64,000 nt of DNA, from NCBI RefSeq assembly GCF_036507355.1, contig NZ_AP027877.1. The stretch is one strand, 5' to 3'. The translations under genes were made by a program, and so were the position numbers. Shown piece after piece: positions 1,605 to 57,146 of this stretch (positions within the stretch are counted from its first letter, which is position 1; every line of letters starts with the position of its first letter). Origin of the DNA: Escherichia coli. GTDB lineage: Bacteria; Pseudomonadota; Gammaproteobacteria; Enterobacterales; Enterobacteriaceae. The notes under the pieces were generated by a model, which worked only from the letters and a program-made list of their open reading frames with translations, searched no databases and was not told the origin of the DNA.

Positions 1605-4406
1605 TTATTCGACGTTCAGCGCGTCATTAACCAGATCTTGTTGCTGTTTCTGGTGAACGGACATATACCCTACCGCCGGAGAGGCGGAGGCCGGGCGGCC
1701 TGCATAACGCAGAGAAGCCCCAAACGGAATCACTTCACGGAAATGATGCTGGCTGCAGTACCATGCGCCCTGGTTGAGCGGCTCTTCCTGGCACCAGACA
1801 AAATCCTTGACGTGAGCAAACTGCTGCAACACTTCCTGCATCGCTTTATGCGGGAACGGGTAGAGTTGCTCGATACGCACAATGGCGACATCGTGTTGAT
1901 TGTTCTTACGACGCTGTTCCAGCAGGTCGTAATAAACCTTACCAGAACACATCACTACGCGCTTCACGCCCTTCGGATCAAGCTCGTCGATTTCACCGAT
2001 GGCTGGCAGGAAGGTGCCGTTCGCCAGTTCTTCGAGGCTGGAAACCGCCAGCGGATGACGCAGCAGGGATTTCGGCGACATCACGACCAGCGGACGACGC
2101 ATCCCGCGCAGCGCCTGACGACGCAGCATGTGGTAAACCTGTGCCGGGGTAGACGGTACGCAAACCTGCATGTTTTGCTCAGCACAAAGTTGCAGATAAC
2201 GTTCCAGACGCGCGGAGGAGTGCTCCGGCCCCTGCCCTTCGTAACCGTGCGGCAGCAACATCACCAGCCCACACATCCGGCCCCATTTCTGTTCGCCAGA
2301 GGAGATGAACTGGTCGATAACCACCTGCGCGCCGTTGGCGAAGTCACCGAACTGCGCTTCCCAGATAGTCAGAGTGCGTGGTTCTGCGGTGGCATAACCG
2401 TATTCAAACGCCAGCACTGCTTCTTCAGAAAGTACGGAGTCCCAGACACGGAACGCGCCCTGGCCGTTATGAATATGTTGCAGCGGCGTGTAAGTAGAAC
2501 CGTTAGACTGATTGTGGATCACCGCGTGGCGGTGGAAGAAGGTACCGCGACCGGAGTCTTCACCCGACAGGCGAACCGGAATGCCTTCATCAACCAGCGT
2601 GGCGTAAGCGAGGTTTTCCGCGCCGCCCCAGTCGAACAGTTTCTCACCGGCAGCCATCGCCTGGCGATCGCCATAAATCTTGGCAACGCGAGACTGCATT
2701 TCAACTGCTTCCGGCACCGTGCTGATGCGTTTCGCCAGCTCCTGCAGGCGCTTCATCTCAACTTTGTTCGGGTACTCTTCGTCCCATTCGTGGTTGAGGT
2801 ACGGCGACCAGGTGAAAGAGTGCATGTTCATCGGACGCCACTCTGCCACTACGCAATCGCCAGCATCCAGCGCATCGCGGTACAGGTTAACCATCTCGGT
2901 GGCATCTTCCAGCGTCGCCACTTTTTCCTGCTCCAGCTTGTCAGCGTAGATTTTGCGCGGTGTCGGATGTTTTTTGATTTTCTGATACATCAGCGGCTGG
3001 GTTGCGCTCGGCTCGTCGGCTTCGTTGTGGCCGTGACGGCGGTAGCACACCAGGTCGATGAAGACATCACGTTTAAAGGTGTTACGGAAATCGAGCGCCA
3101 GACGGGTCACAAAGGCAACGGCTTCCGGATCATCCGCGTTAACGTGGAAAATCGGTGCCTGAACCATCTTACCGATATCAGTACAGTACGGTGTAGAACG
3201 GGCATCCAGCGGGTTAGAGGTGGTGAAGCCAACTTGATTGTTGATAACGATACGTACCGTACCGCCAACTTCATAACCACGCGCTTTCGACATGTTCAGG
3301 GTTTCCTGAACCACGCCCTGCCCGGTCACTGCGGCGTCACCGTGGATGGTGATTGGCAGCACTTTGTTGCTGCTCGGCTCATCAAGTCTGTCCAGACGGG
3401 CACGAACAGAGCCGATAACAACCGGGCTTACAATCTCAAGGTGAGACGGGTTAAACGCCAGCGCCAGGTGTACCAGGCCGCCATCGGTCTGGAAGTCAGA
3501 CGAGAAGCCCATGTGGTATTTCACGTCACCCGTGCCGAGGTGTTCTTTATGTTTACCGGCGAACTCGTCGAACAAGTCTTGCGGTTTTTTACCCAGCACG
3601 TTCACCAGCACGTTCAGACGACCACGGTGCGCCATCCCGAGAACCACTTCCCGGGTGCCGCTGTTGCCAGCGTGGCGGATCATCTCTTTAAGCATCGGGA
3701 TTAACGCGTCACCGCCTTCCAGCGAGAAGCGTTTTGCACCAGGGAATTTTGCACCGAGGTAACGTTCAAGGCCTTCAGCGGCGGTCAGTTCGCTTAAGAA
3801 GCGTTTTTTCTCTTCGCTATTGAAAGTCGCGCGACCAGACTCGATACGCTGTTGGATCCAGCGTTTTTCTTCGGTGCTGGTGATGTGCATATACTCGGCA
3901 CCAATCGGGCCGCAGTAGGTTTGCTTGAGGGCTTCCAGCAGCTCGCCGAGTTTCATGGTTTCTTTGCCGCTGGCAAATGAACCGACGTTGAAGGTCTCCT
4001 GGAAGTCTGCTTCGGTCAGATCGTGGAAAGACGGATCCAGATCGGCCACTTTATCTTGCTGCCACAGTCCCAGCGGATCGAGATTCGCATGCTGGTGACC
4101 ACGGAAGCGGTATGCGTTAATGAGCTGCAGGACTTTAACCTGCTTCACATTGGTGTCAGGGTCGGAGATCGTTGAAGAGTAACGTGAAGCGTCTTTCGCC
4201 AGGCGGCGGAAATATTCACGAGTTTGAGAGTGGAATTGATCCGGTTTGACTCCCGTACCAGGTAACTGCTGGAACGTCGAACGCCAGTTAGCGTCAACCG
4301 AGTCAGGATCGGTTAAGAAGTCTTCATAGAGCTGTTCTATCCAGCTCTGGTTTGCGCCAGAGAGGTAAGAAGAGTCCAACCAGGCTTTCAAAGCGCTGTT
4401 CTGCAT
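1605..4406 (-). CDS. sucA: 2-oxoglutarate dehydrogenase E1 component
   Basis: 933-aa [33 protein letters not shown]...; full-length SucA. Confidence 0.97.
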
Positions 4407-4585
4407 CGTGATCCCTTAAGCATCTTTTTTATGCTTACTTCGCCGTGGATACTACCACGCACAGTGATGTGCGTGCCGGGGTTCACTTGCGAGCTCTTGT
4501 CTACGTAGTGGCTCGCGAAGGAACCTTTAAAAACTGTCTTAGTGTCAGGGGCAGTTTTTAAAGATTTCCTGCATTTCTTTGTTAC

Positions 4586-14135: not shown

Positions 14136-15193
14136 GATTCGCCAAAGGCGTGTTGCTCGCCATCTGTCTGATTTTTTTGCCGCTAAAAGCGGCGCTGGCG
14201 CTGAACTGCTATTTTGGTACCACAAACGGTGCTGTAGAAAAATCGGAAGCTATTATGCCCTTCGCCGTTCCGGCCAATTCCAAACCCGGCGATAAAATCT
14301 GGGAATCTGACGATATAAAAATTCCGGTCTACTGTGACAACAACACAAACGGTAATTTTGAAAGCGAGCACGTCTACGCCTGGGTAAACCCTTACCCCGG
14401 TATTCAGGATCCCTATTATCAATTGGGCGTAACCTATGAAGGCGTGGACTATGACGCAAGCCTTGGGAAAAGCCGCATCGACACGAATCAGTGCATCGAC
14501 AGTAAGAATATTGATATTTACACCCCGGAGCAGATCATTGCGATGGGCTGGCAAAATAAACTTTGCTCCGGCGATCCAACCGTTATGCACAAATCGCGGA
14601 CGTTTGTGGCGCGTATGCGGCTTTACGTTAAAGTTCGCGCCATGCCGCCCCATGATTATCAGAGCAAACTCAGCGATTACATCGTCGTACAGTTTGATGG
14701 CGCAGGCAGCGTGAACGAAGACCCTACCGCGAAGAGTCTGAAATATCACATTACCGGTCTGGAAAATATCCGCGTGCTGGATTGCAGCGTCAACTTTGCT
14801 ATCTCACCTGAAACCCAGGTCGTTGATTTTGGCCGATTTAACGTGCTGGATATTCGTCGCCATACGATGTCGCAGCAATTTAAAATAACTACAACCAAAT
14901 CACAAAACGACCAGTGTACCGACGGTTTTAAAGTCAGCTCTTCGTTTTATACCGATGAAACCCTTATCGACGAAGATAAATCACTGCTCATTGGCAATGG
15001 CCTGAAGCTTCGATTGTTGGATGAAAATGCCTCACCCTATACTTTCAACAAATACAGTGAATATGCCGATTTTACCAGCGACCTGTTAGTGTATGAAAAA
15101 ACCTACACGGCAGAATTGTCATCCACGCCGGGTACGCCCATCGACGTTGGTCCCTTTGATACAGTGGTACTTTTCAAAATTAACTACAACTGA
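14132..15193 (+). CDS. ybgO: Fimbrial adhesin-like protein (putative tip adhesin)
   Basis: 353-aa ORF with signal peptide ([23 protein letters not shown]); start overlaps the chaperone stop (ATGA); last gene of the chaperone-usher cluster. Confidence 0.85.
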
Positions 15194-15341
15194 TTTAGCC
15201 TATTGCCCTTTCCAGCCGGAGAGGGCTTCTTCGGTTAATTGCCAATTTTCCGGCTTTTATTGATTACCGTTATTTTTTCCATGCCCGGCATTCTTTATGC
15301 TGTATCGATACACCAAAGAGTAAATAATGAGGGAGCAAAGG

Positions 15342-16388
15342 ATGCCAGTTTTGCAGTGGGGAATGTTATGTGTGCTATCACTTCTCCTTTCTATTGGTTT
15401 ACTCGCGGTACATCTCCCGGCGGCATTATTACTTGGGCCGATGATCGCCGGGATCATCTTCAGTATGCGCGGGGTTACCCTGCAACTCCCCCGCTCCGCT
15501 TTTCTCGCCGCGCAGGCCATTCTTGGCTGCATGATTGCGCAAAACTTGACCGGTTCGATCCTGACCACGCTGGCGGTTAACTGGCCGATTGTGTTAGCTA
15601 TTTTACTGGTGACGTTGCTTTCCAGCGCTATCGTGGGATGGCTACTGGTGCGCTATAGCTCACTGCCCGGAAATACTGGTGCCTGGGGCTCCTCGCCTGG
15701 CGGCGCGGCGGCAATGGTCGCTATGGCGCAAGATTACGGCGCAGATATTCGCCTGGTGGCGTTTATGCAATATCTGCGAGTGCTGTTCGTCGCGGGGGCC
15801 GCGGTCCTGGTCACCCGCATGATGCTGGGTGATAACGCTGAAGCGGTTAACCAGCAAATCGTCTGGTTCCCGCCAGTGAGCATTAATCTCCTGCTTACGA
15901 TTTTGCTCGCGGTCGTTGCCGGTACGGCGGGATGCCTGCTGCGTCTTCCTTCCGGCACGATGCTCATCCCGATGCTGGCGGGCGCAGTGCTCCAGTCTGG
16001 TCAGCTCATCACCATCGAACTACCAGAATGGCTGCTGGCGATGGCGTATATGGCAATTGGCTGGCGGATTGGTCTTGGTTTCGATAAACAAATCTTACTG
16101 CGGGCACTACGCCCGCTACCGCAAATCCTGCTGTCGATTTTTGCTCTGCTGGCTATTTGTGCGGGTATGGCGTGGGGGCTGACCCGGTTTATGCACATTG
16201 ATTTTATGACTGCCTACCTCGCCACCAGCCCCGGCGGGCTTGATACCGTGGCGGTCATCGCCGCAGGGAGCAATGCCGATATGGCGCTCATTATGGCGAT
16301 GCAAACCCTACGCCTGTTCAGTATTTTGCTGACAGGGCCTGCCATTGCGCGGTTTATTTCAACCTATGCACCGAAGCGATCGGCCTAG
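15342..16388 (+). CDS. abrB: AbrB-family inner-membrane protein (putative regulator of aidB expression)
   Basis: Track ORF 15327..16388; start placed at [37 protein letters not shown]; polytopic membrane protein of 348 aa. Confidence 0.85.
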
Positions 16389-17176
16389 TGCTGGCAGCCA
16401 GGGCACCAGTAAAACGGGCGAGATGACAGCGTGGTTTTCTCAATGATGCCGCCACAACGTTCGCACGGTTCTCCATCACGATGAAAAACCTTAAAGCGGA
16501 ACAGCGCGCCGTGATGTTTTTTCTCATCCACCTGCCCCCGCGTAGCGTAGGAAAATCGAGGAATATCCAGTAACGCGTGTGCGAGTGCATCCAGTTGCGC
16601 CGCATTGAGATCTTTCGCTTTATGATTTCCAGTCACCCCAACCTGCCAGAGGATCTCCACCCGCAAATAATTGCCAAGCCCAGCCAGAAACGCCTGATCG
16701 AGCAGTAATCCAGCAAACTGACGGTTACGAAAGCGCGGCGACAATAACCGTTCTTTCACCACCTCCGGCGTCAGATTCGGATCCAGCACATCGGGACCAA
16801 CGCGTTGTAAAAACGGATGCGTGGTCAGTTGTTCCGGGGTCAACATCTCAATATCCGAGGCGCTATAAAGCAGAATGGTTTTGTCAGCCGTTTGCAGTTT
16901 TACCCGCAATACTCGCGTGGTCTGCGGCTCTTCGCCGGTATCAACCACGCGCCAGACGCCGTAAAGCTGATTATGGCTGTAGAGCGTTAAGTCGTTGGAA
17001 AAATGAGTTAACAGCGCCTTACCACGCGTTTCCACATGGGTAACGTGTTGACCGATAAGTGGTGATTGATAAGATTTTAACTGCGGGAAAGCAAACCAGA
17101 CATCAGTTAGTGGTTTGCCTTTGATCGCCGCCTCCAGGTTATCCGCTGCACGGCGGATCTCCGGGCCTTCAGGCAT
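16385..17176 (-). CDS. nei: Endonuclease VIII (DNA glycosylase/AP lyase)
   Basis: 263-aa [36 protein letters not shown]... with C-terminal zinc finger [26 protein letters not shown]. Confidence 0.96.
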
Positions 17177-17211
17177 GGTGATATCCTTTTTTCATTCTTT
17201 ATTAAACGGGG

Positions 17212-17946
17212 TTATGCTGCGACAACAATCCCCTTTTCGGCAAATGCAGAGCGTAGTCGGCGGGCGAACGCCAGTGCGTGCTCGCCGTCGCCATGCAGGC
17301 AGACCGTTTGCGCCGTGACCGTTGCCCATTCGCCGGTGATACTTTTGACTCTGCCGTGTTGCACCATCTCCAACGTTTGCGCCAGCGCCTGTTCTTCGTT
17401 TTCAATCAACGCGCCTGACTGGCTTCGCGGCACCAGCGAGCCGTCAGCCTGATAACCGCGATCGGCAAACACTTCCTCGCGCGTTGTCAGGCCATATTGC
17501 TTGCCTGCACGAATCAGCTCGCTTCCTGCCAGCCCAACGAGAACCAATGCTGGATCGCAAGCGTATACCGCTCTGGCGATGGCGTCTGCCAGTTGTGCTT
17601 CTTTCGCCGCCTGGTTGTACAACATGCCGTGCGGTTTGACATGACGCATTACGCCGCCTTGCGCACGGGTAATCGTTGCCAGCGCGCCAATTTGATACAG
17701 CGTCTGGGCGTAAACGGTTTCTGGCGGCAGCTGCATAGCGCTGCGACCAAAATTTTCCCTGTCGGGAAAACTCGGATGAGCGCCAATCGCGACACCATTT
17801 TTTATTGCTTCACGCACGCAAGCCTGCATGGTTTGCGCATCGCCTGCATGAAATCCACAGGCAATATTGGCAGAGGAAACCAGCGTTAATAGCTCTGCGT
17901 CGCTGGTGCAGCCTTCGCCCAGATCGGCGTTCAGGTCAATTTTCAT
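17212..17946 (-). CDS. pxpA: 5-oxoprolinase subunit A (LamB/YcsF family)
   Basis: 244-aa [47 protein letters not shown]... Confidence 0.93.
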
Positions 17947-18868
17947 TGTGCAGCCGCCACGCTAATTGTTCGAAATAACGTTGCTGATCTTGCCGCGCTT
18001 TCAGTGCCTCTTCCAGTGAACACTGGACAAAATGAATCGGCTGACCGAGCGGAATTTGCGCCAGATGGTACATATCAGCCTCAATGATACAGGCAATACG
18101 CGGGTAACCACCGGTGGTCTGTGCGTCGTTCATCAACACAATGGGCTGCCCGTTATGCGGCACCTGCACCACGCCCGGTAACAAACCGTGAGATAACAGT
18201 TCGCGATCGGTGGTGCGTTTTAAAATTTGCCCCTGTAAGCGATAGCCCATGCGGTTACTTTGCGAGCTAAGCTGCCAGGGCGAACGCCAGAATGCATCCT
18301 GCGAGGCGCGATCGAACTCATGATATTCCGGGCCCGGCAAGGCGCGAATGCGGTTGCCCCACAGCAGCTGTTTAACGCCCTGCGCTTCCATAAAATCACG
18401 CTTCGATTTGCCAATCGGGAGTCGGTCACCATCCTTCAGTAAACGGCCTTCCAGCCCGCCAATCCCCACTTTGAGATCGGTGCTGCATGACCCCATTACC
18501 GGCGGAACATCAATACCACCCGCGACCGCCAGATAACTGCGCATCCCGTGCTGCGGGCGTTTAAGCGTTAAACGCTGGCCTGCTTTCATCGGCAATCGCC
18601 AGCCGGTCCAGACGGCATTATCATCCAGCAGCGCTTCGCAACCGGCACCCGTCAGAGCAAACCCCCCATCAGTTTCGAACTCAACCGTTAACTGACCGAG
18701 CGTGATCTCCAGCGCGGGGGCATTGGCGTCATTACCCACCAGCAGGTTAGCAATGCGCAGCGCAGGCATATCCAGTGCGCCGCAGTGGCTGATACCCGAC
18801 TGGCGAAAACCGTGACGACCGCCATCTTGCACAGTGGTATACATGCCCGCACGAATAATCTTCAGCAT
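17936..18868 (-). CDS. pxpC: 5-oxoprolinase subunit C
   Basis: 310-aa [50 protein letters not shown]...; overlaps pxpA and pxpB as in a translationally coupled operon. Confidence 0.93.
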
Positions 18869-19518
18869 ACTCCCTCCTTTTGCGGTACAAAGCGCACGCT
18901 GTCTCCCGGACGTAATAAGATGGGTTCGTCACGCGCCGGATCAAACAGGCTGAGTGAGGTATGACCAATCAACTGCCAGCCACCCGGCGTTGCCAGCGGA
19001 TAAACACCAGTCTGCGGCCCGCCGATCCCGACAGAACCTGCCGGAACGAGCAAGCGCGGTTCAGCGCGCCGTGGCGTGTGTAGTTGTTCCGGCAAACTCC
19101 CGAGATACGGGAAGCCCGGTTGAAAACCTAAAAACCAGACCACGTATTCCACGGAGGAGTGCAATTCAACAACCTGTTTTTCGCTCAACCCGCAATGCGC
19201 CGCGACCACCGCCAAATCCGGTCCGCCTGCACCACCGTAAACCACCGGAATTTCAATAAAGCGAGACTCAGGTTCCAGGGCCTCGCTCTCCTCCCACCAG
19301 CGTTGCAAACGCTCTATGGCATCCAGCGCCAGCGACTCAGGATTACGCAAAATCACCGTGATATTGTTCATGCCGGGAATGGCTTCAACCACATTCGGCA
19401 TATCCACCAGACGCTGCGCCAGTCGCCAGATCCGTTTCTGGCTAGCCAGCGTCACCGGCGGTTCCAGTTCCAGCACTACCGCCGTTTCACCTATCAGATA
19501 ACAACGCGCTCGTTGCAC
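18862..19518 (-). CDS. pxpB: 5-oxoprolinase subunit B
   Basis: 218-aa [42 protein letters not shown]... Confidence 0.93.
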
Positions 19519-22036: not shown

Positions 22037-22050
22037 CAGGTCAAACCGAT

Positions 22051-22165
22051 GCCTGATGCGACGCTTAACGCGTCTTATCAGGTCTACGTATTTCCTGCAA
22101 TTTATTGAATTTGCACAAATTTGTAGGCTGGATAAGGCGTTTACGCCGCATCCGGCATCTGGGCT
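22051..22165. repeat. REP/BIME units between convergent dtpD and phr
   Basis: gcctgatgcgacgcttaacgcgtcttatcaggtctac and gtaggctggataaggcgtttacgccgcatccggca palindromic units. Confidence 0.6.
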
Positions 22166-22184: not shown

Positions 22185-23603
22185 TTATTTCCCCTTCCGC
22201 GCCGCCTCATACGCTGCCAACGTTTGTACTCTCGCCTCTTTGTGATCGACTATCGGTTGCGGATAATCCAGCGTCACACCTGCTTTCTGCGCCCACTTCC
22301 ACGGCTCATGCACCGCTTTCCCCGGTACATTGCGCAGTTCCGGTAGCCACTGGCGGATAAACTCGCCTTCGCGGTCAAATTTCTCGCCCTGGGTTGTCGG
22401 GTTGAAAATACGAAAATACGGCGCTGCATCAGTACCCGTAGAAGCCGCCCACTGCCAGCCACCGTTATTGGCTGCCAAATCACCATCAATCAGCTGCGAC
22501 ATGAAATATCGCTCGCCTTCGCGCCAGTCGATCAACAAATCTTTCACCAGAAAACTGGCTGTAATCATCCGTAGCCTGTTATGCATCCAGCCAGTGCTAT
22601 TAAGCTGACGCATGGCAGCATCGACAATCGGGTATCCCGTTATGCCTTCCTGCCAGGCCTTTAAATGGGCGGGATTGCTTTGCCACTGTACACGATCCGT
22701 CCAGGCAATAAACGGACAATGTTTACACAACGAGGGGTAATATGTCATCAGATGACGGTAAAACTCGCGCCAGATCAGCTCATTAAGCCAGACACTACCG
22801 GCCCCACCGTCCAGCGCCTGCGGCTGTTCCGCCAACAGGCGATGCAAACACTGGCGAGGTGATAACCCGCCCGTTGCCAGGCTGGCGGACAAACGACTGG
22901 TGCCTTCCACTGCCGGAAAATCTCGTTGTTGCTCATATTCTCCGGCACCGTTCTGGCAAAACTGGCGTAATTGCGCAATCGCCGCTTTTTCTTCCACCGG
23001 GAAATGCGCAGTATCGAAAGACTGACGAGGATAATTCAGCGTAATGGATGGCGCGGGCTTTATCGATCCGCTACTACGAACTTTTGGTGCAGCGACGCAC
23101 TCCGGCATCCCTTCCCGCAGCCGTTTCAGCCAGGCATTCTTAAAAGGCGTAAAGACTTTGTACATCTCATGATTGCCGGTCATCACCGCGCCAGGCGGCA
23201 GGATCACGCTGTCATCAAATCCTTCACACACCACGTTACGCAGCGTTCTCTCAACCTGCACATCCCGCGCCCGCTCATTCACCTCATACTGATAGTTATA
23301 AAAAAGATGAGTAACGCTGTTTTCCGCGCACACCTGTTTAACTATTTCGACGCTGGCGGCAAAGTCATCCACTTCACGGAACAATAAAGGAATGCCTTTT
23401 TCCGCCAGCGCGATTTGTAGCCCGTTCAGTTGAGCATTGATAAGTTCAGCCTGACGCGGCGACATATTATGCGCCGCCCACTGGCGTGGTGTAGCGATAT
23501 ACAACGCCAGCACGCGTGCAGACGAATTGCGGCAGGCGGCAGCCAGCGCGAGATTATCGTGCAGACGTAAATCCTGGCGAAACCAGACCAGATGAGTAGT
23601 CAT
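22185..23603 (-). CDS. phr: Deoxyribodipyrimidine photolyase
   Basis: 472-aa ORF MTTHLVWFRQDLRLHDNLALAAACRNSSARVLALYIATPRQW...; full length. Confidence 0.96.
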   Translation of the reverse strand: MTTHLVWFRQDLRLHDNLALAAACRNSSARVLALYIATPRQWAAHNMSPRQAELINAQLNGLQIALAEKGIPLLFREVDDFAASVEIVKQVCAENSVTHLFYNYQYEVNERARDVQVERTLRNVVCEGFDDSVILPPGAVMTGNHEMYKVFTPFKNAWLKRLREGMPECVAAPKVRSSGSIKPAPSITLNYPRQSFDTAHFPVEEKAAIAQLRQFCQNGAGEYEQQRDFPAVEGTSRLSASLATGGLSPRQCLHRLLAEQPQALDGGAGSVWLNELIWREFYRHLMTYYPSLCKHCPFIAWTDRVQWQSNPAHLKAWQEGITGYPIVDAAMRQLNSTGWMHNRLRMITASFLVKDLLIDWREGERYFMSQLIDGDLAANNGGWQWAASTGTDAAPYFRIFNPTTQGEKFDREGEFIRQWLPELRNVPGKAVHEPWKWAQKAGVTLDYPQPIVDHKEARVQTLAAYEAARKGK

Positions 23604-24109
23604 AAAACTCCTGAATGGCGCAAGTTAATCACACGCGGCCAAAGTTCGAAATAACGCTGCCCTGAAAGCCAGGCGTCAGGATAAAGCGCCATATAGTGTT
23701 TGATACGCATCAGCGGCGCAAGAAGTGGTTGCTCGCCACGGCGATAACTGTCGATAAGCGCAGCCAGCTGCTGGCGTTCTGTGGAATCAATATGCGGGCG
23801 AAAATAACCCTGAACGTGCATCAAAACGTTGGTGTGATCGCGCGGGTTGGCGGGATGAGAAAGCAAAACAATTACGCGTTGGCGGTACTGGCTGTAAAAA
23901 TCATCCAGATTTTGCCACTGATGAATATCAGCCACAAACGGGCCAAGTTTGCGGTATTCCGGCTGAGAATGAGCCAGAAAGACGAGTTTATAGCGGCTGT
24001 GATAATCGAGAAGCGCCCCGCGCGTTAAGCCATGTTCTTTCAGTCGATGTAACTCATGAAGGGCGAAGATACGGATTAGGGTGCTGTCATCAAATCGTTG
24101 CTGATTCAT
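23600..24109 (-). CDS. ybgA: DUF1722-family protein, co-transcribed with phr
   Basis: 169-aa ORF MNQQRFDDSTLIRIFALHELHRLKEHGLTRGALLDYHSRYKLVFLAHSQPEYRKLG...; stop overlaps the phr start (ATGA). Confidence 0.9.
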   Translation of the reverse strand: MNQQRFDDSTLIRIFALHELHRLKEHGLTRGALLDYHSRYKLVFLAHSQPEYRKLGPFVADIHQWQNLDDFYSQYRQRVIVLLSHPANPRDHTNVLMHVQGYFRPHIDSTERQQLAALIDSYRRGEQPLLAPLMRIKHYMALYPDAWLSGQRYFELWPRVINLRHSGVL

Positions 24110-24567: not shown

Positions 24568-24572
24568 ATAAT

Positions 24573-24612
24573 AAAAAAGCCGGGAAGATGTTATTTTCTT
24601 CCCGGCTTTTTT
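24573..24612. terminator. Bidirectional rho-independent terminator shared by the SymE-like gene (+) and the Rhs immunity gene (-)
   Basis: gccgggaag-(10 nt loop)-cttcccggc stem flanked by an A run on one side and a T run on the other. Confidence 0.75.
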
Positions 24613-24904
24613 AAAGTTTATTTATAGCTTGGTTAATTTCAAATAATAATGAGACAATATCTTTCGCAGAACCATTATAAATGGGGGTATCCCAATCAAA
24701 GTCCTTTATTAAACAAATATAAAAATTCCCATTTAAATTAAAAGATGGTCGCCACCCAACATCCAAAAGATACCCACCAGGATATTCAACTTGGAGCATA
24801 TCTTCCTTAAGTTCATCTCGCTGTTCATTAAGAGGGATGCTTTGTTTCAGGGAGAAGTCATTAAAAATTACATTCCCTTTTTTTCCTAAGAAATCAATGT
24901 TCAT
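24611..24904 (-). CDS. Putative Rhs immunity protein (cognate to the toxin tip immediately upstream)
   Basis: 97-aa AT-rich ORF MNIDFLGKKGNVIFNDFSLKQSIPLNEQRDELKEDMLQVEYPGGYLLDVGW...; its ATG overlaps the toxin stop (ATGA at 24901-24904). Position and composition are typical of rhsI genes; no family assignment was possible. Confidence 0.6.
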   Translation of the reverse strand: MNIDFLGKKGNVIFNDFSLKQSIPLNEQRDELKEDMLQVEYPGGYLLDVGWRPSFNLNGNFYICLIKDFDWDTPIYNGSAKDIVSLLFEINQAINKL

Positions 24905-26151
24905 GGTGTTGTTAGCCTTCGGAATTCATCAAGTGATATGGGATGTCCATGTATTGTCCCACCGCTAAGTTCAACTCGAACCCATTGAGATTCTTTACCC
25001 TCACTGGCCCCAATAACTTTCCCCATATCTTTTACTTTCCATGGTTTACCGTTGGTAACAGGTGTGCCTGTATTAAAAACATCGTATTCCAGCGTTTTAA
25101 TATCAATATCGGGAGAATATTTTGCCGGGCCTGATTTTGTTGATTTAATTATATCCTTCCATGATTTGTTTTTTGGAGGAAAATGTTTGTATCCATGATT
25201 TGTCCATTCAGGTTGCCCACACTTTAAACCTAACGGGTCGATCCACCCCAACGGATTCGGCGCGTATTGGTATAAATTTAATCCACCAAGCAGCCCTATC
25301 GGATCCGTTACCATGAACCGCCCGACATCCGGATCATAGTACCTGTGCAGATTGTAGTGCAGCCCCGTTTCCCTGTCGAGGTACTGTCCCTGGTAGCGCA
25401 GGTTCTGCTCCACCCTGCCGTGGTCCTTCTCCTGTATCGTGTTACCCCAGACCTGATACCCCGTCTCCCACACGATTCTCCCGTCGCTGTCCGTCATCTC
25501 TTCCGGCGCACCGTTCACATCCGTGTGAAAATACAGTATCCGGTTCGGGCCCTCTTTGCCTGCCTTATCCACCCGCGCCAGCGGTTCATAACTCCCCGGG
25601 TCCCTGTAGATGTACAGGCTGCCTGTTCCCTCCGGCCTGCTCTCCTGCGCCAGCCGCATTCCGTCCCATAAAAATTTTGTCCGGTTGTACGGTTTACCGT
25701 CAGGGCTGATGTGCTGTTTTTCCGTCCGCCTCCCCAGTGCATCGTACACATACCGGTATGCCCCCCGCGCTGTCGTCACTTCCACCATCCGGTGTTCCGC
25801 ATCATAACGGTAACTCTGCGTTCCGCTCCGGCCCTCCTTTTCCACCGCACGGCCAAATTCGTCATAACGGTAGTGCACACCACGGTAAGACATCAGCCGG
25901 TTGAACGGCACCACGCTGTTTTCTGCCGTGGCCCTTTCCCCCGCGCGCCTCCCCAGCAGGTTTCCCGCCGCGTCGTACTGCCAGCTCGCCAGATACCCCT
26001 CATCCTCCGAACGGCACGCCGTGATGCGCCCCGTGGGGTCGTAGAAGTAATCCGTTTCCCCCCGCCGGCTGTGCCGCGTCTTCAGCAGTTCATCCTCGCC
26101 ACTGTAGCTGTACTGCCGGTCCGTGAACGTCTCCGGTACCACCCCGCGCAT
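24901..26151 (-). CDS. Rhs protein, C-terminal part: end of YD-repeat core, PxxxxDPxGL motif and a 107-aa toxin tip. Same frame as the upstream fragment, separated from it by an in-frame TAG
   Basis: ORF contains YD repeats (YRYDEFGR, YRYDAEHR, YVYDALGRR) and the hallmark YYDPDVGRFMVTDPIGLLGGLNLYQYAPNPLGWIDPLGL, followed by a low-GC tip KCGQPEWTNHGYKHF...TIHGHPISLDEFRRLTTP. Frame arithmetic: the TAG at 26221-26223 is in frame with this ORF. Confidence 0.85.
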   Translation of the reverse strand: MRGVVPETFTDRQYSYSGEDELLKTRHSRRGETDYFYDPTGRITACRSEDEGYLASWQYDAAGNLLGRRAGERATAENSVVPFNRLMSYRGVHYRYDEFGRAVEKEGRSGTQSYRYDAEHRMVEVTTARGAYRYVYDALGRRTEKQHISPDGKPYNRTKFLWDGMRLAQESRPEGTGSLYIYRDPGSYEPLARVDKAGKEGPNRILYFHTDVNGAPEEMTDSDGRIVWETGYQVWGNTIQEKDHGRVEQNLRYQGQYLDRETGLHYNLHRYYDPDVGRFMVTDPIGLLGGLNLYQYAPNPLGWIDPLGLKCGQPEWTNHGYKHFPPKNKSWKDIIKSTKSGPAKYSPDIDIKTLEYDVFNTGTPVTNGKPWKVKDMGKVIGASEGKESQWVRVELSGGTIHGHPISLDEFRRLTTP

Positions 26152-26220
26152 CCCGCTGTATGTCTCCCTGCGCTTCAGCCGCCCGCCGGGGTCGTAAAGC
26201 TGCCGCGTGCTCAGTCGCCC

Positions 26221-28380
26221 CTAGCTTCTGAGCACCTCACGGTGCAGGTGGTCGCGCGTGAACTCGCTGATGACCTCCCGGTCCAGATTTATCTGCTGGA
26301 GATGGCCGCTGCCGTAGTACAGATGGCGCTGCGTTCTGCCGTCCGGAAAGGTGGTGGCAGTCCGGTTGCCCAGTTCATCGTACTGGTGGGTCAGGATGCC
26401 CTGCGCCGTCTCCTCGCTCAGCATCCGCCCCAGTCTGTCGTAGCTGAAGCAGATAACTTCCGGCGCGTCAGTTTCGTGCCGCTGGCGGCGGATTTCACCG
26501 CCCCGGTCCCCGGTGAACACCACTTCCGTGACCGCGTTCAGCGCGTTGTAGCGGTACGACTGGCGGCAGCCGTCCGGATTTATCTGCTCCGCCAGACGGT
26601 CCAGCACGTCATGGCGGAACCGGTAGCGTTCTCCGTTCTCGTTCGTGAGCGTGACCAGACGCCCGTAAGCGTCGTACCCGAACGCCGTCCTGCGCCCCAT
26701 CGCGTCCGTCCGGCTGCGCACCCGGCCCTGCCCGTCCCGCTGCCAGCGCGTTATCCTCCCCATCGGGCTGGTGTACTTCACCAGACTGCCCGCCGCGTCT
26801 GACTGGTAATTCACCGTGCGGCCGTCCGCCAGTATCACCTCCGTCAGATGACCGCTGTCGTCATACCCGTAGCGCGTGCTGTGGCTCTCCGCATCCGTCA
26901 TTCTGATAAGCCGCGTGCGTTCGTCGTAGAACCACGCCGTCTGCGAGCCGGAGCAGTCCGTGTGCCGCATGAGCTGCCCGTCTTCATTCCACTGGAGGTG
27001 TTTATTCCCCCCGCGCGCATCCGTTATCTGCACCACCTGGCCGTGGTGGTCATACTGATACCGGGTGTTCTGCTGCAGCGGGTCGGTCACGGCAAGAAGG
27101 TTGCCGCGTTCATCGTACACACAGCGCCAGGTGTTTCCCGCCGCGTCCACCTCCGTTTCCGGCTGGTGCCACACCGGGTGCCACTGTGTCTGCGCCACCC
27201 GCCCCAGCGGGTCGTGCGTCTCCGTGATATGCCCCTGCCGGTCATACACATAGCGCCATTTGCCGCCCTGAGGGTCGGTCATCCCCAGCAACAGTCGTTC
27301 TTCGTCGCTCCAGCGGAATGTCGTCACCTGTCCGGCTTCGTCCTGGTACGCCGTCACCTGATTCTGCGCATCCCACTGGTGATAACGTGTGCGCCCCAGT
27401 CCGTCCGTCACGCACAGCCTGCGCTGCGCCAGGTCCCACGCCAGCCGGTACTGTTCACCGCTGTCCGTGTGGTGCCCCGTCACCCGCCATGCCGCGTCAT
27501 CCGGACCGTCATACCAGCCCCACTGGTAATAATACCCTTCGCCGCCCGGCTGGCGGTGCAGCGTCATGCAGTGGTTTTCGTCGTAAGCAAACTCACGCAG
27601 CAGGTGCCCCGTGCTGTCGTACACGCCGTTCAGGTGGCCGGCCTCGTCATAGCTGTAACGACGCAGCAGTAAAGGTGCAGTCTCAGGGAAATGCTGATAA
27701 ATCTGTGTCACCCGCCGGGGATGCGCCGCCAGTTCGTAATACAGACGGATGCACGGACGCTGCTGTTCGCCGCTGATTTCCACAATGCGGCCCCGGTCGT
27801 CGTAGTACAGATTCAGACAGTTGCTGTTACGGTCGCCCAGCATTTTCAGCCGCTGGCGCTGCGGGTGGTGCGGGTCGCCTTCAAACAACCAGTGGATACC
27901 ATCATCGCTGCTGATAAGCCAGTGCCCCTGCTCACCACGCCTTACCGCCAGCCCTTCACCGGGGCTGTAAAACCCGCCCCCCGGCAGTACGGCTTCCATA
28001 TCCAGGCGTCGCCCCATACCCGACACAAAGGTCATGCAGTTTTCGTCTGCGCCACCCGGCAATACAAATGCCACCTGACACTGGTACACCTGCTCGTTAT
28101 CACGGAGAAACTGGCTCTGTATTTCCAGCCCTTGTTCACCGTCATTAATCCCTACCCGTGTTACCTGAACTGGCGTGTAGTGAAGATCCTTTACCTGTTT
28201 CTCCAGTTTTTTCATTTGCTGTTCAATCTGGGAGGCTAATTCGTCTCCTTCCTGCATCTGGCCCCGACTGATAATGAGTGCAGCGTCGGGATCGCTGAGG
28301 CGCAGCATATTAATAGTGCTGTCCTGAATAATATTCCCGGGAAAAGTTACAACAGTTTCATTGAGATAATACTCCGTCAT
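26221..28380 (-). CDS. Rhs protein, N-terminal part: DUF1795-like N-terminal domain plus YD-repeat core, ended by an in-frame amber codon (probable pseudogene or disrupted gene)
   Basis: 719-aa ORF. Core shows classic Rhs repeats (YQYDHHGQVV, YGYDDSGHLTEV, FGYDAYGRLV) and ends ...FTRDHLHREVLRS*, where intact Rhs proteins continue ...TRDRLHRETLRSFG.... Confidence 0.85.
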   Translation of the reverse strand: MTEYYLNETVVTFPGNIIQDSTINMLRLSDPDAALIISRGQMQEGDELASQIEQQMKKLEKQVKDLHYTPVQVTRVGINDGEQGLEIQSQFLRDNEQVYQCQVAFVLPGGADENCMTFVSGMGRRLDMEAVLPGGGFYSPGEGLAVRRGEQGHWLISSDDGIHWLFEGDPHHPQRQRLKMLGDRNSNCLNLYYDDRGRIVEISGEQQRPCIRLYYELAAHPRRVTQIYQHFPETAPLLLRRYSYDEAGHLNGVYDSTGHLLREFAYDENHCMTLHRQPGGEGYYYQWGWYDGPDDAAWRVTGHHTDSGEQYRLAWDLAQRRLCVTDGLGRTRYHQWDAQNQVTAYQDEAGQVTTFRWSDEERLLLGMTDPQGGKWRYVYDRQGHITETHDPLGRVAQTQWHPVWHQPETEVDAAGNTWRCVYDERGNLLAVTDPLQQNTRYQYDHHGQVVQITDARGGNKHLQWNEDGQLMRHTDCSGSQTAWFYDERTRLIRMTDAESHSTRYGYDDSGHLTEVILADGRTVNYQSDAAGSLVKYTSPMGRITRWQRDGQGRVRSRTDAMGRRTAFGYDAYGRLVTLTNENGERYRFRHDVLDRLAEQINPDGCRQSYRYNALNAVTEVVFTGDRGGEIRRQRHETDAPEVICFSYDRLGRMLSEETAQGILTHQYDELGNRTATTFPDGRTQRHLYYGSGHLQQINLDREVISEFTRDHLHREVLRS

Positions 28381-38371: not shown

Positions 38372-38406
38372 GTAAAAAAGGGCGATCTTCCGACCGCCCT
38401 TTTTCT
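38372..38406 (-). terminator. Rho-independent terminator downstream of pgm
   Basis: On the minus strand: agggcggtcggaagatcgccct stem followed by a T run; also T-rich on the plus side. Confidence 0.7.
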
Positions 38407-43417: not shown

Positions 43418-43435
43418 GCCAGTCTGAACGAGAAA

Positions 43436-43461
43436 AGCCAACCTGCGGGTTGGCTTTTTTA
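43436..43461 (+). terminator. Rho-independent terminator downstream of fur
   Basis: agccaacc-tgcg-ggttggct stem followed by tttttt. Confidence 0.75.
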
Positions 43462-43500
43462 TGCAAGGGAAATAAGAAAAGCGAGAGTTACAGCTCTCAC

Positions 43501-43827
43501 TTATTTGTTATTACTGCGAATTTCCTGCCAGACCTTATCACAATCGGCTTTCACCGCCTGATCATTTCCGGTTTGCGTTGCACGCAGACACTGCTGATAA
43601 TCCAGTACGCGTACACTTTCCTGGTCGGCAAACTGCTGATGTTGTTTCTCTTTCTTCAGCACGTTTAACACGCTCTGGCAGGCTTCAATTTTTTCTGGCG
43701 AACCTTGTGCGGTGTTGATACAGGCGCTGTATGCCTCTTTCAGACGGCTGTCTTCCTGTGGCGCGGTTGATTGCGCACAAGCCACCAGCCCCGATGCCAT
43801 CATGGCGATGAGAATCAGTTTTTTCAT
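43501..43827 (-). CDS. chiQ: Lipoprotein encoded downstream of the chitoporin gene
   Basis: 108-aa ORF MKKLILIAMMASGLVACAQSTAPQEDSRLKEAYSACINTAQGSPEKIEACQ... with lipobox LVAC. Confidence 0.85.
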   Translation of the reverse strand: MKKLILIAMMASGLVACAQSTAPQEDSRLKEAYSACINTAQGSPEKIEACQSVLNVLKKEKQHQQFADQESVRVLDYQQCLRATQTGNDQAVKADCDKVWQEIRSNNK

Positions 43828-57106: not shown

Positions 57107-57113
57107 CATTAAA

Positions 57114-57146
57114 AAAGCTCGCTTCGGCGAGCTTTTTGCTTTTCTG
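57114..57146 (+). terminator. Rho-independent terminator of the tRNA operon
   Basis: aagctcgc-ttcg-gcgagctt stem followed by tttttgcttttct. Confidence 0.75.

Follow-up and report, generated by a model that had tools for sequence, protein, structure and literature searches.

The nei and abrB genes of E. coli converge on one another and end within the same few bases. This raises the question of whether such a junction is simply the result of how the two genes came to be neighbours, or a device by which one gene acts on the other, and of how transcription of either gene would then be brought to a halt. We addressed this question in a 64-kb stretch of E. coli DNA (the window). A sequence-only reading of the window had noted the shared stop codons and the lack of a terminator at this position.

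Geometry and identity of the overlapping genes

We observed that positions 16385-16388 of the window read CTAG (C at 16385, T at 16386, A at 16387 and G at 16388; context tcggcCTAGtgctgg), bases 16380-16389 being tcggcCTAGt. In the list of open reading frames, the plus-strand frame that stops here encodes 353 residues and ends in ...STYAPKRSA, and the minus-strand frame encodes 263 residues and ends in ...FYWCPGCQH. The central TA (16386-16387) is common to both stop codons, the coding sequences overlap by 4 bp, and the intergenic DNA between the two genes is zero. Position 16385 is the third base of the last abrB codon (GCC, Ala), and 16388 pairs with the third base of the last nei codon (CAC, His). 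The sequence-only reading had placed a TAG stop for each gene and a 4-bp convergent overlap in a CTAG palindrome; the sequence and the reading frames bear out both stops, and the coordinates are exact (Table 1).

Table 1. Positions in the window of the genes, the overlap and the terminator-related features
Feature	Position	Strand	Remarks
abrB CDS	15327..16388	+	longest-ORF start 15327; RefSeq-equivalent start 15342 (348 aa); stop TAG 16386-16388
nei CDS (endonuclease VIII, 263 aa)	16385..17176	-	stop TAG = reverse complement of 16385-16387 (read 16387 to 16385)
CTAG tetramer, 4-bp tail-to-tail overlap	16385..16388	strand-neutral	from the sequence
Weak terminator-like element within nei	16474..16524	+ (antisense to nei)	relaxed scans
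C-rich, G-poor stretch, predicted abrB read-through RNA (antisense to nei)	16597..16726	+	C/G 1.4-2.07
C>G stretches, predicted nei read-through RNA (antisense to abrB)	16021..16202	-	C/G up to 1.56-1.64
pgm/kdpE terminator	38376-38405	bidirectional	single-hairpin scan
chiQ/fur terminators, two	43433-43458 and 43477-43504	bidirectional	single-hairpin scan
ubiF/tRNA terminator	57112-57140	bidirectional	single-hairpin scan
phrB/dtpD REP-like hairpin	22050-22085		single-hairpin scan

The names given to the two genes were upheld by Pfam searches and by the RefSeq annotation of orthologues. AbrB matched PF05145 over residues 34-344 of 353 (E 8e-99). Nei carried the Fapy_DNA_glyco, H2TH and zf-FPG_IleRS domains; its Fpg/Nei zinc finger (PF06827) occupies residues 235-263 of 263 and reaches the last residue, so that the stop codon directly follows the domain. 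Both ORF ends are thus supported by domain models. The RefSeq product name for abrB is 'AbrB family transcriptional regulator'. The protein encoded at 15327-16388 is very hydrophobic, with PF05145 covering nearly its whole length; it looks like a polytopic membrane protein, and the regulator label looks like an inherited misnomer.

The plus-strand genes of the region run in the order gltA, ybgD, ybgQ, ybgP, ybgO, abrB, and the minus-strand genes facing abrB are nei, pxpA, pxpC, pxpB and ybgI. By this gene order nei is the last member of a co-directional pxpB-pxpC-pxpA-nei run. Gifford and Wallace are said to have reported in 2000 an operon in which nei comes last.

When a 2.1-kb segment around the junction was compared with 5426 complete E. 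coli genomes, 5424 of them matched; identity was highest in strain 33F4 (98.7%) and was 96.1% in MG1655. In the RefSeq annotation of MG1655 (locus L001), abrB lies at 1642-2688 (+) and nei at 2685-3476 (-), which is again a 4-bp overlap. The identical overlap was found in the RefSeq/PGAP annotation of eight E. coli genomes, including MG1655 and 33F4; five of the annotated genomes were picked to span the identity range. Re-annotation therefore left the stops of the sequence-only reading where they were, since RefSeq gives the same ends.

The overlap is of a common class with an uncommon tetramer

Four tetramers, namely CTAA, TTAA, CTAG and TTAG, permit a 4-bp convergent overlap, and overlaps between prokaryotic genes are most often 4 bp long (Lillo & Krakauer 2007, PMC2174442). 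Among convergently overlapping E. coli genes TAG is enriched, at 19% vs 8% (Table 5 of PMC2174442). The nei/abrB junction has the features of this YTAR class: the genes are genuine, the tetramer is one of those permitted, and the overlap is conserved in orthologous pairs.

Among the five convergent junctions of the window, with spacings taken from the strain 33F4 annotation, phrB/dtpD and ubiF/tRNA are each separated by about 150 bp, pgm/kdpE by about 160 bp and chiQ/fur by about 85 bp, and nei/abrB has its 4-bp overlap. It is the odd one out locally, yet of a globally common type.

CTAG was about 15-fold depleted in the 64 kb, with 8 sites against 124 +/- 10 expected from dinucleotide-preserving shuffles. 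As the tetramer is avoided in the window, chance does not account for it at the junction, where it results from two TAG stops set back to back. The other sites are at 19442, 24178, 26221, 28599, 28965, 30303 and 55493. Five of the 8 are grouped at 24.1-30.4 kb, in or around an Rhs region, and this clustering fits a foreign or atypical composition.

The Rhs element itself (24901-28380, minus strand) is GC-rich, with 63-65% GC at 26-28 kb vs about 52% around it. Two ORFs make it up, one of 719 aa and one of 416 aa; RHS repeats occur in each, and the RHS core motif in the second. The 719-aa ORF stops at a TAG within the CTAG at 26221-26224. This division into two ORFs, with the longer one ending in TAG, suggests that the element is probably an interrupted rhsC-like gene. 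Between it and an ORF at 23600-24109 (probably ybgA) sits a very strong, perfect, bidirectional terminator-like hairpin (24572-24613; 17-bp stem, TAAAAAAGCCGGGAAGA...TCTTCCCGGCTTTTTTA). The closest genome, 33F4, is without about 5.8 kb between phrB/dtpD (about 22.1 kb) and pgm/kdpE (about 38.4 kb).

The neighbourhood of nei across Enterobacterales

We collected 120 loci from species-representative genomes with a degenerate pattern for the Nei C-terminus, and sorted them by tblastn mapping. In 61 of the loci a convergent gltA was no more than 250 bp from the nei stop (median 73 bp), and in 25 it lay farther off, with something inserted. We found abrB directly adjoining nei in 9 loci; gltA was not seen in 21, and 4 had no usable nei match. 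Judging from these loci, nei facing gltA across a short spacer is the common Enterobacterales state, and it is probably the ancestral one. In Escherichia, Intestinirhabdus and some Citrobacter, nei is separated from gltA by abrB; the Escherichia loci have the ybgDQPO fimbrial operon in addition, on the gltA side of abrB. From this distribution we infer that abrB entered the nei/gltA junction by insertion and that ybgDQPO was a further addition in Escherichia, placed between abrB and gltA.

The two arrangements also differed in their terminators. A canonical terminator was present within 250 nt after nei in 53/106 loci without abrB, and many of these were clearly bidirectional (e.g. Citrobacter freundii, AACGCGCCCTGAGGCGCGTT-TTTTCGTG). 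After nei in the 12 abrB-adjacent loci (these include the window and two RefSeq E. coli), we obtained just 2 weak terminator matches. The comparison provides a small example of an insertion leaving a gene pair without a dedicated terminator.

The exact 4-bp overlap was kept in 11 of the 12 abrB-adjacent loci, down to 75% AbrB identity. The junction reads CTAG in E. coli, a cryptic-clade 'E. coli' and E. whittamii; TTAG in E. albertii, Citrobacter sp. Cu233 and one MAG; CTAA in C. youngae CCUG 30791; and TTAA in Citrobacter sp. MGH106. Intestinirhabdus alba has a 16-bp spacer and TGA/TGA stops. Since all four tetramers are seen among relatives, the palindrome itself is not conserved, and the conserved feature is, on this comparison, the abutment of abrB and nei. 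The outer bases of the tetramer are third-codon positions in E. coli, so neither protein changes whichever of the four YTAR forms is present.

We also asked whether the CTAG palindrome itself is under selection. CTAG was present in eight of eight E. coli genomes, with neighbouring third positions variable, and in all in 10 E. coli-labelled sequences and E. whittamii. Two invariant silent sites in 11 closely related Escherichia sequences are too little to argue selection, and we rejected this idea on the TTAG of E. albertii and the CTAA, TTAG and TTAA of Citrobacter; the palindrome as such has no apparent significance.

Two further loci showed other arrangements. In Superficieibacter electus, nei faces a convergent ybgO-like fimbrial gene (71% identity) at 131-472 nt downstream, with no abrB between. 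Other insertions displace gltA at the 25 loci counted above, and across Enterobacterales the nei/gltA junction looks like a hotspot for repeated insertion. In Phytobacter massiliensis (positions 4336-4441 of locus L025), the nei frame runs about 35 codons past its usual end into the 3' end of a convergent gltA, the gltA match ending 27 nt inside. This extension is either a genuine stop-loss or a sequencing error.

No canonical terminator at the junction

We searched for intrinsic terminators using a standard terminator scan and two additional rule-based scans, of which one was relaxed and one demanded a single hairpin abutting a T-rich tail. The standard scan reported no terminator-like site on either strand at 16000-17000, and the three scans together gave no canonical hairpin with a U-tract on either strand within about 700 nt of either stop. 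This agrees with the sequence-only reading, which had noted that nei and abrB have no terminator between them. A GC hairpin flanked by an A-tract and a T-tract, as in a bidirectional intrinsic terminator, was likewise missing from nei/abrB, and no Rfam match at E<=1 was obtained in 14800-18000. A hairpin spanning the junction was also considered for the role of bidirectional terminator. The stability of four folded segments from this region did not exceed that of shuffled sequence (z +0.55, -0.26, +1.18 and -1.49), and the candidate was rejected.

As a positive control, the single-hairpin scan recovered textbook A-tract/GC-hairpin/T-tract bidirectional terminators at three other junctions of the window (pgm/kdpE, chiQ/fur and ubiF/tRNA). 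As the scan finds real terminators elsewhere in the window, the absence of one at nei/abrB holds. Rule-based scans could overlook unusual terminators, such as the two elements that follow. On the plus strand, the element within nei has a 7-bp stem (CATCACG/CGTGATG) and a 29-nt loop, followed by TTTTTTCT at 16517. Its dG is about -10 kcal/mol, the loop is oversized, it was absent from the standard scan output, and we judged it non-canonical. On the minus strand, a 6-bp GC hairpin (GCGGGCGTAGTGCCCGC) ends about two bases upstream of 16097 and is followed by AGTAAGATTTG; its U-tract is poor and it too is non-canonical.

Candidate Rho-loading regions in the predicted read-through RNAs

The C/G ratio of the predicted read-through RNAs was computed in a 78-nt sliding window. 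On the plus strand, the C-rich, G-poor stretch falls 210-340 nt beyond the abrB stop, with a maximum of 2.07 at 16623-16700. On the minus strand, the C>G stretches fall 180-360 nt beyond the nei stop and peak at 1.64 (16098-16021). Ratios such as these two maxima are common in coding antisense. The C>G tracts on both strands are candidate Rho-loading regions; they are compatible with Rho-type release and non-diagnostic of it, the C/G ratios that would suggest Rho dependence here being modest (at most 2.07).

Origin of the overlap and the fate of the transcripts

Our preferred account, to which we assign a probability of about 0.7, is that of an ordinary 4-bp overlap that arose as a by-product of an insertion, has no intrinsic terminator, is relieved by Rho-type release and serves no dedicated function. 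The insertion of abrB between nei and gltA would have brought the abrB 3' end against nei, with no spacer left. The shared TA would then be doubly constrained, as a single change there destroys both stops, and this may be why the overlap persists. The outer two positions are silent for both proteins, which would explain why all four YTAR tetramers occur among relatives. With no intrinsic terminator, each RNA polymerase would pass its stop codon and continue into the antisense of the partner gene. Rho, acting on the untranslated RNA, would then probably release it at the C>G tracts, which lie 200-350 nt downstream; a head-on encounter with the opposing polymerase may also cause release while both genes are active. 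The two mRNAs would as a result be complementary at their 3' ends, over as much as a few hundred nt.

Read-through of each transcription unit into the other, as proposed here, is in line with a published survey of RNA-seq data. Its 165 convergent excludons, each detected in 50% or more of 58 MG1655 transcriptomes, include nei-abrB (ExcludonFinder, NAR 2025, PMC12288877). Calls in that survey depend on coverage boundaries, placed where the signal drops under 50% of the mean for the gene (PMC12288877). For nei and abrB, once transcribed, the call is nearly automatic, because the coding sequences already overlap by 4 bp.

The presence of the pair in this published E. coli 'excludome' (PMC12288877) could also be read as a sign of function. 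In a functional convergent excludon, loss of the terminator would have been selected, pxp-nei and abrB would antagonise each other via collision and/or RNase III cleavage, and the repair glycosylase and AbrB would be expressed in a mutually exclusive way. The overlap is indeed kept in 11 of 12 abrB-adjacent loci of Escherichia and Citrobacter, no terminator insulates the two units, and work on convergent E. coli genes has shown that head-on collisions help to terminate transcription (Wang, Watters, Ju & Liu, bioRxiv 10.1101/2022.10.23.513370). However, the excludon call is coverage-based and comes almost automatically with overlapping coding sequences, and the doubly constrained TA, together with selection on both C-termini, accounts equally well for the conservation. 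The programmed collision sites so far described require an intergenic stem-loop for positioning (bioRxiv 10.1101/2022.10.23.513370), whereas nei/abrB has none (fold z near zero). Moreover, the two genes are 16 bp apart in Intestinirhabdus alba, and abrB is absent from this position in most Enterobacterales. We consider a functional excludon unlikely. A stronger form of the idea is that the junction is a selected device making pxp-nei (oxidised-pyrimidine repair) and abrB expression mutually exclusive, via collision together with RNase III. We take the name abrB to go back to an altered expression of aidB, which belongs to the alkylation-damage response; if this form were true, two DNA-damage-related functions would be coupled purely by gene geometry. 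We regard it as a decidedly long shot. A dedicated regulatory function is most likely absent, the overlap being a by-product of insertion and of purifying selection on both C-termini. 'No dedicated function' is here the default position, and the overlap is conserved nonetheless; the synteny of excludon pairs has been reported to be higher than that of other pairs (PMC12288877).

Both transcripts might instead be ended by cryptic intrinsic terminators inside the partner coding sequence, namely the 16474-16524 (+) element and the GCGGGCGTAGTGCCCGC hairpin on the minus strand. If these work, the transcript overlap would be limited to about 130-300 nt and Rho would be unnecessary. Both were picked up downstream of the respective stops by relaxed scans, and 146/165 convergent excludons have overlapping terminators predicted by TransTermHP (PMC12288877). 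Against them stand the 29-nt loop of the one and the AGTAAGATTTG that takes the place of a U-tract in the other; neither passes the standard scan or resembles the clear terminators elsewhere in the window, and the folding energy of the region is no better than that of shuffled sequence. We think it very improbable that they end the two transcripts. The remaining possibility, that one stop is misplaced and the genes do not truly overlap, had no point in its support. The stops are fixed by the reading frames, the domain models reach or nearly reach both C-termini, RefSeq gives these ends in eight genomes, protein length is kept over the 120 loci, and a deletion of abrB through ybgD in strain DGF-298 altered the end of Nei (PMC10652928). 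An annotation artefact is thus refuted as far as sequence evidence allows, and we give it next to no credence.

Other observations at the locus

In E. coli OkiPb01694, abrB is interrupted by a P2-family prophage of about 33.7 kb, integrated about 100 bp upstream of the junction with nei. The prophage spans integrase to ogrK and carries an ISEc12 insertion. The insertion site corresponds to about 16288-16291 of the window, in the abrB 3' end (L130, 4088-4100; L131, 4476-39292), and the homology to the window stops at ...GATATGGCGCT. What is left of abrB is a 5' part of 957 nt and a 3' remnant of 108 nt, the latter still overlapping nei by 4 bp. The abrB 3' end thus serves as a phage attachment site. 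Such an integration is rare; 3/5424 genomes did not cover the whole query.

We looked for a sigma-28-type promoter for abrB, prompted by the genomic-SELEX peaks that fall within ybgO (PMC5493296). A motif search near 15000-15340 gave nothing convincing, and this candidate was dropped.

Consequences and relation to known systems

The practical consequence of the arrangement can be seen in the genome-reduced strain DGF-298. Deletion of abrB-ybgO-ybgP-ybgQ-ybgD in this strain resulted in a Nei protein with His263Gln and a 9-residue extension, and its nei is now annotated as a pseudogene (PMC10652928). This change provides independent confirmation that the nei stop lies inside the end of abrB. When abrB is to be deleted or replaced, its last bases should be kept, as nei otherwise loses its stop codon; this is the only real hazard of the arrangement.

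The overlap is real, ordinary and already known: it is present in every E. coli annotation, it falls in a described class, and the pair has been published as transcriptionally overlapping. The scientific weight of this further instance of the commonest convergent overlap class is small.

Compared with the 4-bp convergent overlaps of prokaryotes (PMC2174442), the geometry of nei/abrB is the same, with stops on opposite strands sharing the central TA, and we found no structural difference. Its CTAG variant requires two TAG stops, TAG being the rarest stop codon of E. coli. With respect to convergent excludons, nei-abrB is itself a listed pair with overlapping transcription units (PMC12288877). 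Classical excludons have long regulated antisense UTRs (3' or 5') and demonstrated reciprocal expression, whereas for nei-abrB it is coverage that overlaps. With collision-assisted termination at bidirectional terminators (bioRxiv 10.1101/2022.10.23.513370), the pair shares the convergent arrangement and the head-on situation of the polymerases. The A-tract/GC hairpin/T-tract element of that system is absent at nei/abrB, but it is present at pgm/kdpE, chiQ/fur and ubiF/tRNA, and after nei in many of the species in which nei faces gltA.
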